64,000 nt of DNA from Octopus vulgaris (taxonomy: Eukaryota): contig OX597815.1 of assembly GCA_951406725.2 (NCBI GenBank), positions 29,078,001-29,142,000 of the forward strand, read 5' to 3'. Shown here in pieces: positions 3,001 through 51,000 of the stretch. Position numbers: made by a program. The number at the start of each line of letters is the position of its first letter. The stretch's first letter is position 1.

Positions 3001-6000
3001 CTACTACTACTACTACTACTACTACTACTACTACTACTACTACTACCGCTACTGCTGCTACTACTTCTACTACTATTACTATTACTATTACAACCACTAC
3101 TATTGTTGTTATTTTACTTCTCAAAGTTCTCGGTTTTATATGCTCTGGTTCATTATGTGAGAGCAGGAGAGAGAAAGGAGATACATTGTGTTCTTATCAA
3201 TGGGATTCCAGTATGTTTTCATCGAATAGAGCCAGTTAGAACTCTCATTGAAAAGGAAATTGAGAGTGGAGAGAGGAAAGTGCTGTCCTCAAGTGAGTTT
3301 ATTGAAAAGTGGTTGAAAGTTGGGAAAATGGCAAGAGTTGATGGTGCCTCTCGAAATGTAGACCTGTGAGTCGGAGAGGAAGAATTGAAGAGGGCACTTG
3401 TTCTTGGGGTTTCAGGGAAATCTCGGACAGTGGGGTTCCTCAAATATCCCAAGAGGCCTTCCTGTATCAGGAGGGCCACATCTCTATAATCTTCCCCACC
3501 ACTTTTTTTTTAAAACCTTTGTATGCTATGCACATGTCCCTTCTACTTTCTTTCATTTTTTTTTAATCATTTCGTTATAAGTAAATTTCCACACTTTATG
3601 TCTGTCTTTGTATTGTCCCCCTCATCCTTCGCCCTCGTGGCAAATAAATGAAATCATTATTATTATTATTACTATTATTTTTCCTTCTTTCTTCAAATTT
3701 TCTTCCGTTTCTCGCCGAGTGTTTTCCGTACACCTAGGGCAGAGAAGCTCATTGTATGCATTCCCAGCTTACACACGCAAATTCACAGGTAAAATATGTA
3801 TTTAAAAGATTAATGAATAAATAAATAAATTCATGAATGAAAAATTAATGAATAAATAAATTCATGAATGTTATTATTATTATTATTATTATTATTATTA
3901 TTATTATTATTATTATTATTATTATTATTATTATTATTATTATTATCATTATTATTATATTTTGTCAGAGGTTGGTTGTGCTGACGATACAAGCGAAGGA
4001 TTCCAATGGCATAGCAACCTGGCAGCTTGCAATGGTTATTGGCATGGACATATAGAAAACGGTAGCTCTCTTTGTAGTCCGGGATGGCGAGTATGTTCGT
4101 GGCAGGACACACGTATTCTAAAGAACCTAACTTGGGAAGAGGCGACGTCTGTCAGCGGATGTTATGCCTACAATGCAGCCCAGGATGGTGGTAGATGTCG
4201 ACAATGTATGGACAATATGGAACAGGTAAAAATGAAAGCAATTTTTAAATTTTTATGAAAGAAATATGACTGGTTTGTTTGAAGTGATCTTCGTCAGCTT
4301 CCTTTACTCATATACAAAGAAAATTAATAAACATATGTGCGGGGAGCTAGGTTAGGATTTTTGTTTAGCCTGGTTGGGCATAAAACATCAGGAGCAGGCG
4401 ACTGTTCAGTGATCATTCAGTGTTCAGAGGCTGAATGATATCCATAGTAAATTAGGATTTCATATCCAAATAACAAATCGTTGCTTAACTAAAAAAAAAA
4501 ATCGATCCTGTACATTTACTGACACATATTTTATGAACACTTTGAAAAAAACAATGCGCTGAGATGATATGAACTTATAAACGTGAGGCAACGGACGATA
4601 TAGAAAAGTTCCTTGTCTTAATCTATGGGCTGTGTCAACTCGTGTTACCAATATCATTGTTACTTATAGTCTTCTATCTTAGGGAAGAGAGAAGCTATAG
4701 AAAATTACGTTAATGTCTTTCTCAAAGCATCTACGATGTACATGAAGCGCGTTGTTTCCCACAGGAATCGAAACTTCAACACAAACACAGCTCCCGTGGA
4801 GATTATCTCTTGTTCCCAACAGTCGCCATCGTGTTATTTTTATGCTGTCTAGCTGCAGGTCATTTCTGGTCGAGCTATTCTACTGCACATAGGTAATCGG
4901 CCGAACGACAAGGAGAGACCCACATACTTCTTGCTCCAGTTTTACCATATCTCTGTCAAACCGTGCATTCAAACATGTAACGATGGAACGAATAAAATGA
5001 AGTGCGGTAGTCTAGAGGTTACTACTGGAGAGAGGAGTAAGGTGGACTCTGTCAAAAAGCAAGTTTTTGTTTCTCAGTAATTCTACTTGGTTGTACACAT
5101 CCCAGCACAGTGATGAAGAAGCTTCCACGTAGACACTCGGCCTGTGATAAGCAAGAGCCAAAACTTCAGATTTCTTTTAATGGATGAGTACTCGTGATAA
5201 AGTAATCATTAGTACAATATACCAGACAATAAGACAAGATGGTCATGACTTAAAGGAAGTAGATTCAAAGCACGCCTAGGGTAGCCATGGTATCAGTAAA
5301 TAAAATATTATTAACTTACTTGCGCCAATGTACCTCGAGCAGCCATAATGTAATGCACTATACCATATGATGAAATTTCATAAGTTATACATTTTTGCAT
5401 GCTGGATTTAAAAGAAAAGGCGGTATCCATTACCTTTTCAGGCCCTCATGTACCAGTGTGATTGATATTGTTTCTGTTCCACTTGAACCCCTTCAAGTCC
5501 TTGTAAATATACGCACCAATGCGTAGTTCGTTTTGACTAGACTGAAAATCAATTTGTAAGGAATTGAATTAACAGTCGACAAATTGTTTGGATTATTGAC
5601 AATTCACAGAAAATGTGTCTTTCTATATAGTGATACAAAAAAATAATATAATAGCGAGATTTCACATTGCCCTTTATATATATGAGAGGATTTCAACTCA
5701 GTAGAGCAGCTTAACAATTATTTGTTAAATATAGATGTTCTTGCAATTTATAGCAACAAACTGTATCTTTACAAGGCACATCTTTACAGCCATGTAAGTT
5801 GGACCTTTGAGAAATGTGTATTTTCCAGAGACACAATGCAGTGCTAGTAATGTGGTAACATATCAGATCATAGGGACATTTTATTGACACAAGGACGGAA
5901 ACACAAAGTCTGCTCTAATTGGTTTATTACATAGAATACTGGGAGGCGATAAAACACCTCCTGCAGTTCACTACTCTTTGCGTCTAATTTGATGCTCTAT

Positions 6001-48000: not shown

Positions 48001-51000
48001 GTTATATTCTTGTCGATTGATTTTCACCTCTTAACATCGTTAGTCATTTCCACGGTGTAAATATTCTTCTGCGATACAATTGCCACAGTTATAACACAAT
48101 TTCGGATGAGCCACTTGTTAGACTTATCTGAAAGTACGACTCAAAAACATCGTCTTTAGCCAGAAGATCAACTTTAACCCTTTAGTATCTGCCAAAATTA
48201 ATGCTTCTTTATCCACACTGTTTTGAACTAATCATGCATCATCTTGTAGTTATGAGATTTTGATGAGGTAGCTGTTAATTTTTAAGACGATATTGTAGGG
48301 TTGGTGTGAGAGACCAGATCTGACCAGTTTGGACATAAAACAGGCAGAATACTTTTGGCCAGATATGGCCGGTTTAAATGCTAAAGGGTTAATCGACCAC
48401 GTAGAAACTCTCTTGCTGGTTTTATTAAATCATTTATATTACTGACTAACGAGATTAATGTCTTCAATGATGGTGGTGGCTGTGGTAGTTTGGTGGTGGT
48501 AATAATCTTTCCTACTTATACTTATGAAGGCGCATGGCTCAGTGGTTAGAGCATCGAACTTACGACCGTCAGGTTGTGAGATCGAATGCCGGACTGGGCT
48601 GCGTGTTGTGTTCTTGAGCAAGACACTTTATTTCACGTTGCTCCAGTTCACTCAGCTGTAGAAATGAGTTGCGACGTCACTGGTGCCAAGCTGTATCGGC
48701 CTTTTCCTTTCCCTTGGATAACATCGGTGGCGTGGAGAGGGAAGTTTGGTATGTATGGGCGACTGCTGGTCTTCCATAAACAACCTTGCTCGGACTTGCG
48801 CCTGGGAGGGTAACTTTCTAGGTGCAACCTCATGGTCATTCGTGACTGAAGAGGGTCTCTGATATAGGCACAAGAACAGTAATTTCGGGGGAGAAGGTAA
48901 GCCGATTACATCGACCCCAGTTACTCAGCTAGTACTTATTTTATCGATCCCAAAAAGATGATAGGCAAAGTCGACCTCGACGTACTTTAACTCGGAACAT
49001 AAAAACGGACGAAATGCTACTAAGCATTTTGTCCGGCGTTCCAACGAATCTGCCCGCTCGCTACCTTAATTAATAATGAAGAGGAGGGGGAGGAGGAGGA
49101 GGAGGAGGATAATTTCTTTATTGACCACCAGGGCCGAACACAAAACATAAAGGACAATACACAGACGAGGCGAAGTGAGGTTGAACGTGTGAACAGCAAA
49201 CAAACACAACGATTAACAAAGTGATTAAATCAACAATATGCTTCCCCAATAGGGGGTGGAGTTCCACCGTAAGGTGACCAAAGAGACCTCACGCACTTTG
49301 GACACCTTAACACCAAAAGCCCTTCAAGAAGGCACCCCCTCCTCTCCCTTCTGTCTGGCCTACAGTATAGTTAGATAGTCATCTCCTGTCCAATATCTCG
49401 TAGAAAGATTTAAGTTTAGCACTGCACTACTAGCAAACGAGTCATTTATCTTCTATACAATATTGTATATTTTCACAGCAGTGAACAGTGCTTATCTACA
49501 GCTAAGTAGACTTAACGATTGGGAATTAAATAACTTTGCCAAAGACAAAGTTCAACTTCAGTAACAGGATACGAATCGTTGACATTCTATAGATAAACCG
49601 GTATCCTTTTGACTTAACCAGCCGCGACACTTTCACTCGAGTTATCTAGTTTCACTACTCAAATCACAGCTTAAGTTTCAGTAACATATTTTATAAAATT
49701 CATTGTCTGTTTTACTTCATAGCATAAATTACAAGGCTTAAATATCAATTTGATTGAAACTTCACTATGAAATTGAGTTTATTAGAATATATGTTAGAAA
49801 TGAAAATGAAATATCATCTTCATGTTTTACATATTTTCCATCTAGATGTCACAAGGTCAATATGGCGGGAATTGGACGAAATTGCCGACGATTACGTTAT
49901 ACAAAATCATCTTGCTTAACTAAAGGTAGAATCGACGTGTATCATCCCAGAAAAAGCCGCGGATGTTCATATACAGCAGGTTATACAACTGGTGTATTGT
50001 GCTGTAAACGAAAGAGAGGTAACTATATCAAATAAAAACATTTGAGTCGAAATGATACAGTTTGTAGATGTTAATCATGAAGAGCTATTTGTCATAAGTT
50101 TATGGATTCAATTTCTGGTTAACTACCACGAGATGCATTCCTTCGATATTTATGTGGGTTCAATGTCGCTGTGTCATCATATTAACAGCGTAGTGAAGAG
50201 GAAAATAGTCAACAATAGCTCGTACTATTGTTGACTTTAAGGCAGTCAAACACACTTGACGCAATAAAGAAAAAATAGAGATATTAAGAAAAGATTGTGC
50301 ATGCTTCGGAACTTGGATATGTGTCCTAACATTTTACCCAATTGAAAAGGGAGGATTGAAGTCTGTTAAATAGTAGCGTATTGGGATTTTGTTGTGTGTG
50401 TATGTGTGTGTATGTGTGTGCGTGGTTTTTATTGTATTTTTTCAAATTTGTCTTTCTGTCTATCTGAGAATCCCTTTAAATTACAAGGCATGATTACACA
50501 CACACACACAAACAGACACAAATATACATATGCATAAATAATACATATATACATATATTATACTTCATACATTATACATACACACATGTATATAAATATA
50601 TATATATATAAATTCATTAATAAGAATATGTATGTGTGCATGTGTGTGTGTGTGCGAGTGTGCAAATGAATATTTATATATATTATTATAGATAACGATA
50701 TGCTCACACACACACACATATACACACACACACACACATGCACACACACACACACACACACACACACACACACACACACACATGCACACACACACACACA
50801 GAGAAAACTTAGAATTACGAGACATTGGCATGCGTTCAACTTAAATAATAAGAAAACGTTCCATTGAACATTTTCAATAATTTATATCATATCACTCCTT
50901 CACAATCACGGCTTTCGTATTACTGCTTGGAATGATTAAGCTATTGATTAATTGATGTTTTCTTTATATATTTATCGATTGATTCATTGATTTATTGATT

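Follow-up and report, generated by a model that had tools for sequence, protein, structure and literature searches.

The window analyzed here, 64,000 nucleotides of the Octopus vulgaris genome (assembly GCA_951406725.2, contig OX597815.1, positions 29,078,001 to 29,142,000), carries one gene on the + strand, of which it holds exons 2 to 10 and which NCBI labels "hemicentin-1-like." We find that this gene encodes, twice over, a cysteine-rich module that is a real domain, unnamed in any domain library searched. On balance, we think it rather probable that the gene product is secreted, that the module is an autonomous 12-Cys domain shared by animals and Myxococcota, and that its role is extracellular ligand binding. 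New in this picture is the sharing itself, within an unnamed family of extracellular Cys-rich domains that perhaps has a remote C-type lectin-like domain (CTLD) fold.

A twelve-cysteine module present twice in the octopus gene

An earlier reading of the window from its letters alone (below, the sequence-only reading) had proposed the order module-Ig-module followed by three EGF repeats, and Pfam scans of the exons and of orthologues bear this architecture out. The positions of the four module exons (A, B, E, and F) are those of that reading, whose outer limits, 3969 and 50018, are exact exon ends; the splicing signals (AG/GT) and intron phases are mutually consistent across the exons of the gene. 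Exon A is 100% identical to P0001, a 506-residue NCBI protein entered as "hemicentin-1-like [Octopus vulgaris]," and the closest intact orthologue is P0002, an unnamed cephalopod-like protein of 542 residues that is 80% identical to exon A. The octopus exons were searched one by one, and the whole-module results given below come from intact database orthologues. The coding exons in the window are as follows.

3969-4225, + strand: exon A, the N-terminal 85 codons of module 1, with 7 Cys; phase 1 in, 0 out; AG at 3967-3968 and GT at 4226-4227; no Pfam family at E ≤ 10
18222-18390, + strand: exon B, the C-terminal 56 codons of module 1, with 7 Cys, the additional CC among them; phase 0 in, 1 out; AG/GT boundaries, matched to P0001; its sole Pfam match is a subthreshold one to the DB module
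23840-24010, + strand: exon C, which encodes the first half of an I-set Ig domain; phase 1 in, 1 out; Ig_3 at E = 3e-10 and I-set at E = 1.1e-8
37400-37507, + strand: exon D, which completes the Ig domain with its second half (...DTGLYSCEV...); phase 1 in, 1 out; matched to P0001; I-set profile positions 58-90 of 90, E = 2.3e-4
46492-46732, + strand: exon E, N-terminal part of module 2, with 6 Cys; phase 1 in, 2 out; no Pfam family
49846-50018, + strand: exon F, C-terminal part of module 2, with 6 Cys; phase 2 in, 1 out; no Pfam family
51173-51283, + strand: exon of EGF 1; phase 1 in, 1 out; EGF_2 at E = 5.3e-6, above cut-off
53472-53663, + strand: exon of EGF 2 and EGF 3; phase 1 in, 1 out; both EGF_2 and EGF_Teneurin pass their cut-offs
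55936-55982, + strand: last coding exon, tail ...HQHILLSYLNRTER, with the TGA stop at 55980-55982; located by a tblastn search of the window with P0001 and P0002

Module 2 repeats module 1 far beyond chance: exons A and E share 33 of 75 residues (44%) without gaps (E = 2e-25), and exons B and F share 17 of 53 (32%; E = 7e-11). These comparisons, together with five intact orthologues, confirm the earlier statement that the two modules align with 12 shared Cys and that module 1 has an additional CC. In the orthologues, module 1 has 137 residues and 14 Cys, the extra CC included, and module 2 has 130 or 131 residues and 12 Cys. When animal and bacterial-type modules are aligned, Cys occupies each of the 12 Cys columns in 85 to 87 of the 87 modules, and the motifs GCxDGTxEG, LCxxGWxVC, GC[FY]Ax[ND]AA, DMAGxG, GR[IV]D, and GVxCC are common to both groups. 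The conserved columns are mostly Cys, Gly, or hydrophobic; no catalytic-type motif is common to the animal and bacterial groups, and only the animal modules conserve the His of 'W.GH'. The module appears to be an autonomous domain of about 130 to 140 residues, the 12 near-invariant Cys of which would most simply form six disulphides. The layout around it (leader-module-Ig-module-EGFs) is conserved among orthologues; the I-set profile scores 55.7 bits on P0001, the Ig pattern DTGLYSC is present in exon D, and EGF_2 scores 27.1 and 28.9 bits on the two EGF exons (cut-off, 22.1).

The gene model requires some comment. The NCBI octopus model leaves exon E early, at 46661, via an internal GT (ac|gtgggc), and P0001 therefore lacks 24 conserved residues of module 2 (WADIYELHGCYAYNAANHKGKCTR, window 46662-46732), among them two of the 12 invariant Cys. 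In the window, the reading frame of exon E stays open up to the donor GT at 46733, and the cephalopod orthologue P0002 and all other orthologues keep the stretch. Barring an alternative isoform, the longer exon E of the sequence-only reading is the better model. Residues 1-40 of P0001, a hydrophobic leader, are without a match in the window, which places exon 1 upstream of it. The introns that split the two modules are not simple copies of each other, because their positions differ: that in module 1 (4225/18222) follows ...CMDNMEQ in phase 0, and that in module 2 (46732/49846) follows ...KCT(R) in phase 2, seven residues nearer the paired CxxC Cys.

Search for a named family

The sequence-only reading could not assign the module to EGF, vWC, TSP1, CUB, or a canonical C-type lectin, and Pfam, NCBIfam, and PDB sequence searches give it no name either. 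In Pfam, exons A, E, and F matched nothing at E ≤ 10, no cut-off was reached over the module in any of the eight exon pieces, and six full orthologues had only Ig and EGF families above cut-off. Lenient Pfam scans placed no family over the module in 22 diverse matches, eight single-module proteins, 40 plus 19 alignment members, or five divergent animal proteins, including a nematode one. Likewise, none of 15 proteins had an NCBIfam match over the module. Against PDB sequences, a profile of the module found no chain at E ≤ 10, and with a whole orthologue the best 60 of 277 matches (E ≤ 1) were all strongest in the Ig or EGF region. Searches of phage and plasmid collections gave no match to the module, and a description of the family was not found in open-access full text. 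Neither a full-length match to a characterized Pfam domain nor, in the homologue searches, a well-studied orthologue turned up.

Two further low-scoring matches were set aside as noise, namely AXH over module 2 of P0001 (E = 0.09) and, in P0003 and P0006, stretches of EGF_TEN that extend from the EGFs into module 2 and score well short of the 65-bit cut-off.

Predicted fold and the resemblance to C-type lectin-like domains

Structure prediction and a structural search, proposed as a check along with the sequence-only reading, gave a confident compact fold without a significant neighbor in PDB or BFVD. The AlphaFold2 model of P0108 (a single-module protein of 177 residues, modeled with a 40-sequence alignment) has a mean predicted local distance difference test score (pLDDT) of 89.1, with 93-98 in the module, and a predicted template modeling score (pTM) of 0.80. 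Its elements are predicted to follow one another as strand, helix, strand, two short helices, strand, helix, and four strands, and an independent model of the 542-residue cephalopod orthologue (pLDDT, 82.6; pTM, 0.43) has broadly the same order in both modules. We therefore speak of a compact alpha/beta fold as a confident prediction. Foldseek returned eight PDB matches, none of them significant (E, 2.5 to 9.7; probability, at most 0.04; template modeling [TM] score, 0.16 to 0.37). Seven were CTLD or Link folds (the TSG-6 Link module, ovocleidin-17, mincle with two entries, two snake-venom lectins, and CLEC5A) and the eighth was pertussis toxin; nothing significant was found in BFVD (best E, 4.5). 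With the full-length model, all matches listed, which are the top ranks of at least 500, were Ig domains and hence uninformative on the modules. The nearest ESM Atlas cluster (0.94) is unnamed, has a length of 140 residues, and is mostly from Myxococcota; at rank 30 (score, 0.76) stands a cluster with Lcl_C on 47% of its members, and a second Atlas query gave unnamed clusters only.

By its predicted fold, the module would work most like a CTLD or Link-type module, and possibly, if rather doubtfully, it is itself a divergent member of that superfamily, a known kind of domain beyond the reach of sequence profiles. Both are compact alpha/beta domains of about 130 residues stabilized by disulphides, which in the module are predicted; both occur in bacteria and, in animals, within multidomain extracellular proteins; and CTLD and Link folds supply nearly all of the weak Foldseek neighbors. 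The predicted succession beta-alpha-beta-alpha-beta, a long loop region, and three or four strands is also what we take to be the CTLD order, which would presumably place the first and last strands of the module side by side. Lcl_C in the Atlas cluster and a weak match to Fib_succ_major (E = 0.092, in 1 of 19 proteins) point the same way, as we take both to be CTLD-like families. The hallmark disulphides of CTLDs link helix 1 to the last strand and strand 3 to the loop after strand 4; in the module, Cys occur where helix 1 is predicted to end and within the last predicted strand, which is at most compatible with these. In contrast, none of the structural matches is significant, and Pfam scans of the exon pieces and of the intact proteins gave no Lectin_C, Xlink, or Lcl_C match (E ≤ 10). 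Moreover, the module has 12 conserved Cys, versus 4 to 6 in CTLDs, and the motifs WIGL, EPN/QPD, and WND are absent from the consensus of the 87 modules. The last point needs a qualification, since WIGL plus the Ca/sugar motifs EPN or QPD and WND mark lectin-active CTLDs only. We regard the resemblance as weak and as a lead only.

Animal carriers and their names

Searched exhaustively against 1.84 billion representatives, exon A matched 190 clusters at E ≤ 1e-3, of which 84 reached E ≤ 1e-10 and nine E ≤ 1e-30. At least 190 sequence clusters carry a strongly conserved domain of about 130 residues over which no Pfam or NCBIfam model rises above its cut-off. With a profile of ten molluscan modules, the complete module was recovered from 79 of the 162 proteins collected, in 94 copies altogether. 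Module 1 of P0002 had 44 matches, 35 of them with a named organism: 27 molluscs, six echinoderms, and two annelids, with no vertebrate and no arthropod among these 35. Further animal carriers are found in Priapulus, Acanthaster, the annelid Ridgeia, Liolophura, Mizuhopecten, Styela, the sponge Sycon, the nematode Soboliphyme, and Ciona savignyi, and orthologues of the same layout range from sponge to tunicate. The absence from vertebrates is only suggested, because the word-indexed searches are not exhaustive and most matches are unnamed.

Where carriers have a name, it derives from the Ig or EGF part alone. The labels of the 35 named matches include "hemicentin-1-like" (five), "notch homolog 1-like" (three), "VWDE," "Titin," and "VEGFR3" (one each), the other 24 being uncharacterized, hypothetical, or unnamed; members from Sycon are labeled "VWDE" or "adhesive plaque matrix protein 2-like." The sequence-only reading had expected annotation as WIF1-like or VWDE-like. 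It was right about the kind of misnaming, and the VWDE label does occur, but WIF1 was seen only as a PDB match to the EGF region and not as a name. Hemicentins are marked by a VWA domain at the N terminus, a long series of tandem Ig domains, and a fibulin-type module at the C terminus, VWDE by a VWD domain, WIF1 by a WIF domain, and Notch by LNR and ankyrin repeats. With hemicentin-1, VWDE, WIF1, Notch, titin, and VEGFR3, the octopus-type protein shares only I-set Ig or EGF repeats. It differs from them in having one Ig and three EGFs in about 530 residues (506 to 542 residues in six orthologues), and in all six orthologues Pfam matched no VWA, VWD, WIF, LNR, kinase, or other defining domain. 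We therefore reject identity with hemicentin, given one Ig, three EGFs, and no VWA match in 506 to 542 residues, and likewise identity with VWDE, WIF1, or Notch, as the VWD, WIF, LNR, and ankyrin families are unmatched in the six; the protein is no titin or VEGFR3 either. The misleading names arise because the module is without a domain model. Defining the family would correct them, add such a model, and flag a conserved secreted animal protein. As no named match puts the protein in vertebrates or arthropods, the usual model groups, a loss in both, if true, would explain why nobody has studied the module.

Bacterial carriers

The taxonomic range, which was to be checked according to the sequence-only reading, extends well beyond the octopus protein: in homology searches the complete module is also present in bacterial-type proteins, Myxococcota included. 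The named bacterial carriers are proteins from metagenome-assembled genomes (MAGs) of Deltaproteobacteria and Myxococcales. We also scanned one genome per bacterial and archaeal species with two narrow patterns built from ten closer sequences, and confirmed four of 38 pattern matches, all in Myxococcota MAGs (contigs of 133 kb to 1.1 Mb; GC content, 0.69 to 0.76). The scan says little about other phyla, since its narrow patterns found only Myxococcota. The four genes encode about 250 to 300 residues, in which a hydrophobic leader with a final Cys is followed by a linker rich in Asp and Ala and by a single module at the end. Many bacterial-type carriers, of about 180 to 300 residues, are lipoprotein-like and consist of leader, linker, and module alone. 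In 39 of the 54 bacterial-type modules the module ends within five residues of the end of the protein, and several terminate long repeat-rich proteins; partner domains include LamG_3, Dicty_CTDC, MopE, TSP3, FN3, DUF4397, and beta-propellers.

Sequence similarity across the two groups is substantial. A bacterial-type profile found 34 proteins at E ≤ 1e-5, of which nine are animal Ig/EGF proteins with E values down to 1e-58, and identity between the animal and bacterial-type sides averages 38.7% (24.8 to 52.7%). Cephalopod module 1 (P0002, residues 56-192) is 51.9% identical to the bacterial-type module of P0074 and 43.8% identical to its own module 2 (residues 293-422).

We computed a quick, unrooted maximum-likelihood tree of 87 complete modules over 130 columns, leaving out P0001, in which module 2 is truncated, and P0157-P0159, which are near-duplicates. 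A single starred branch (Shimodaira-Hasegawa-like approximate likelihood ratio test [SH-aLRT], 96) divides it into sides of 33 and 54 rows. The smaller side holds all 22 named animal modules, ten modules from unnamed two-module proteins, and the single-module protein P0131; the larger holds 51 single-module rows and three rows from unnamed two-module proteins. On the animal side, a starred clade of 20 rows unites the second modules, and the first modules group together with a value of 81. From this grouping it follows that the module duplication is old and that one transfer, or one very old split, suffices for the distribution.

Proposed role and origin

In the reading that we favor, the gene would encode a secreted protein that starts with a leader and module 1, continues with an I-set Ig domain, module 2, and three EGFs, and closes with a short conserved tail. 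The module would be an extracellular binding domain for a glycan or protein ligand, held by six predicted disulphides, in which conserved acidic positions (GCxDG, xEG, AAxD, DMAG, GRID) possibly hold a metal or a polar ligand. The animal protein could then present two binding sites, with the Ig domain as spacer and the three EGFs as stalk, and might act as a bivalent matrix, adhesion, or recognition factor. We read the module as an extracellular binding domain because of its 12 near-invariant Cys, the leaders in both kingdoms, the partner domains of adhesion and lectin type, the terminal position on bacterial surface-type proteins, and the compact predicted fold. Secretion is suggested by the hydrophobic leaders of database proteins in both kingdoms, as judged by eye, and by the company of Ig and EGF domains.

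Several observations weigh against this reading. The lectin motifs are missing from the consensus, as noted above, and the CTLD resemblance falls short of significance. The region of the octopus signal peptide lies outside the window, and leaders were assessed by eye. One carrier, P0118 (a Joint Genome Institute [JGI] metagenome protein of 1586 residues), has the module at 1429-1569, behind an nSTAND1 NTPase-WD40 arrangement. Proteins of this type are expected to be cytoplasmic and make a poor fit for a disulphide-rich extracellular module. Furthermore, most bacterial-type matches are metagenome proteins without a known organism, and the tree, being unrooted, based on 130 columns, and quickly searched, gives no direction of transfer.

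As to origin, we would propose that the module was transferred once, in the distant past, between a bacterium and the stem lineage of animals. A fuller scenario can be offered only tentatively: a family without a described relative, possibly of a new fold, would have been transferred once between the animal stem and a Myxococcota-like bacterium, duplicated early around an Ig domain, and kept from sponge to tunicate as a bivalent secreted factor for recognition or adhesion, with, to judge from the named matches, loss in vertebrates and arthropods. For ancient transfer of surface proteins between bacteria and animals, teneurins provide a precedent (PMC3278476, PMC13018210). Like the octopus protein, teneurins are extracellular animal proteins in which a key domain has close bacterial counterparts, and the octopus EGFs match teneurin-type models. 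Unlike them, the octopus protein has no teneurin domain other than the EGF type matched, so that the analogy is one of history and not of homology.

In a rival reading, the module would be a toxin or enzyme effector, in bacteria the variable C-terminal tip of large surface proteins as in polymorphic toxins, and animals would have co-opted it as in teneurins. We consider this improbable. It would account for the 39 of 54 bacterial-type modules at the extreme C terminus, several behind long repeat-rich proteins, and transfer of surface toxins from bacteria to metazoa is reported to have occurred (PMC13018210). In contrast, many carriers are only leader, linker, and module, no catalytic-type motif is found in both groups, and the 'W.GH' His is confined to animals; the neighboring genes were seen as lists of open reading frames (ORFs) only, with no search aimed at immunity-like genes.

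Far less credible still is kinship with the nematode DB module (PF01682), which we take to have 12 Cys and to co-occur with Ig domains and which is, like the module, Cys-rich and extracellular. Exon B does match its profile (E = 0.006; 17.3 bits over 34 residues), but the score is under the 25-bit cut-off, the match spans only profile positions 31-64 of 97, and it occurs in one of eight exon pieces. It was not repeated in six full orthologues (E ≤ 1), in the nematode and four other divergent animal proteins (E ≤ 10), or among the families listed for the 40 plus 19 alignment members, and we have rejected it. The CysRRep repeat (10.64898/2026.06.07.730663) was likewise rejected as an identity for the module. 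As reported there, it is Cys-rich, ends in CC, and occurs in eukaryotes and in bacteria including Myxococcota (27 of 35 bacterial matches), but it is a short six-Cys unit (Cx6-9Cx5-7Cx8-11Cx7-8CC), different in Cys count, length, and spacing from a module of 130 residues and 12 Cys. Finally, that the sharing reflects contamination, with animal DNA in bacterial bins or the reverse, is next to inconceivable and is ruled out for the loci examined: although most bacterial-type matches lie on short metagenome contigs, introns of 3 to 14 kb split the octopus copies, whose scaffold is AT-rich, the Myxococcota copies are ORFs without introns in the large GC-rich contigs given above, and the starred branch parts the two groups.

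The family would be of use in two further ways. Once defined, it would be a clean test case for the sharing of domains between Myxococcota and animals, and its small single-domain bacterial proteins are an easy way to a structure and a ligand.

Other elements in the window

The protein's tail, ...LLSYLNRTER, encoded at window positions 55936-55982, is kept in molluscan orthologues and contains an N-x-T sequon. The window as a whole is AT-rich (GC content, 0.30 to 0.40), with abundant microsatellites and no N. Its intron ORFs and repeats gave no Pfam, tRNA, or Rfam identity. Three stop-free stretches on the + strand (9-401, 7676-7924, and 8743-9195) share the motif ...LYSLE[RK]RR... and, with no Pfam match at E ≤ 0.01, look like decayed copies of one mobile-element ORF. 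An intronic ORF fragment at 41406-41714 (+ strand), with weak C2H2 zinc-finger matches below cut-off (E = 0.005), is probably decayed as well. Two dispersed repeat families, each of five copies and neither overlapping an exon or matching tRNA or Rfam models, lie in the window. Copies of the first are in introns and flanks, at 2333-2571, 13178-13416, 44035-44258, 48881-49077, and 55193-55573. The second, at 12484-12962, 15962-16366, 32913-33316, 40914-41103, and 52926-53352, usually adjoins CA/TA microsatellites.

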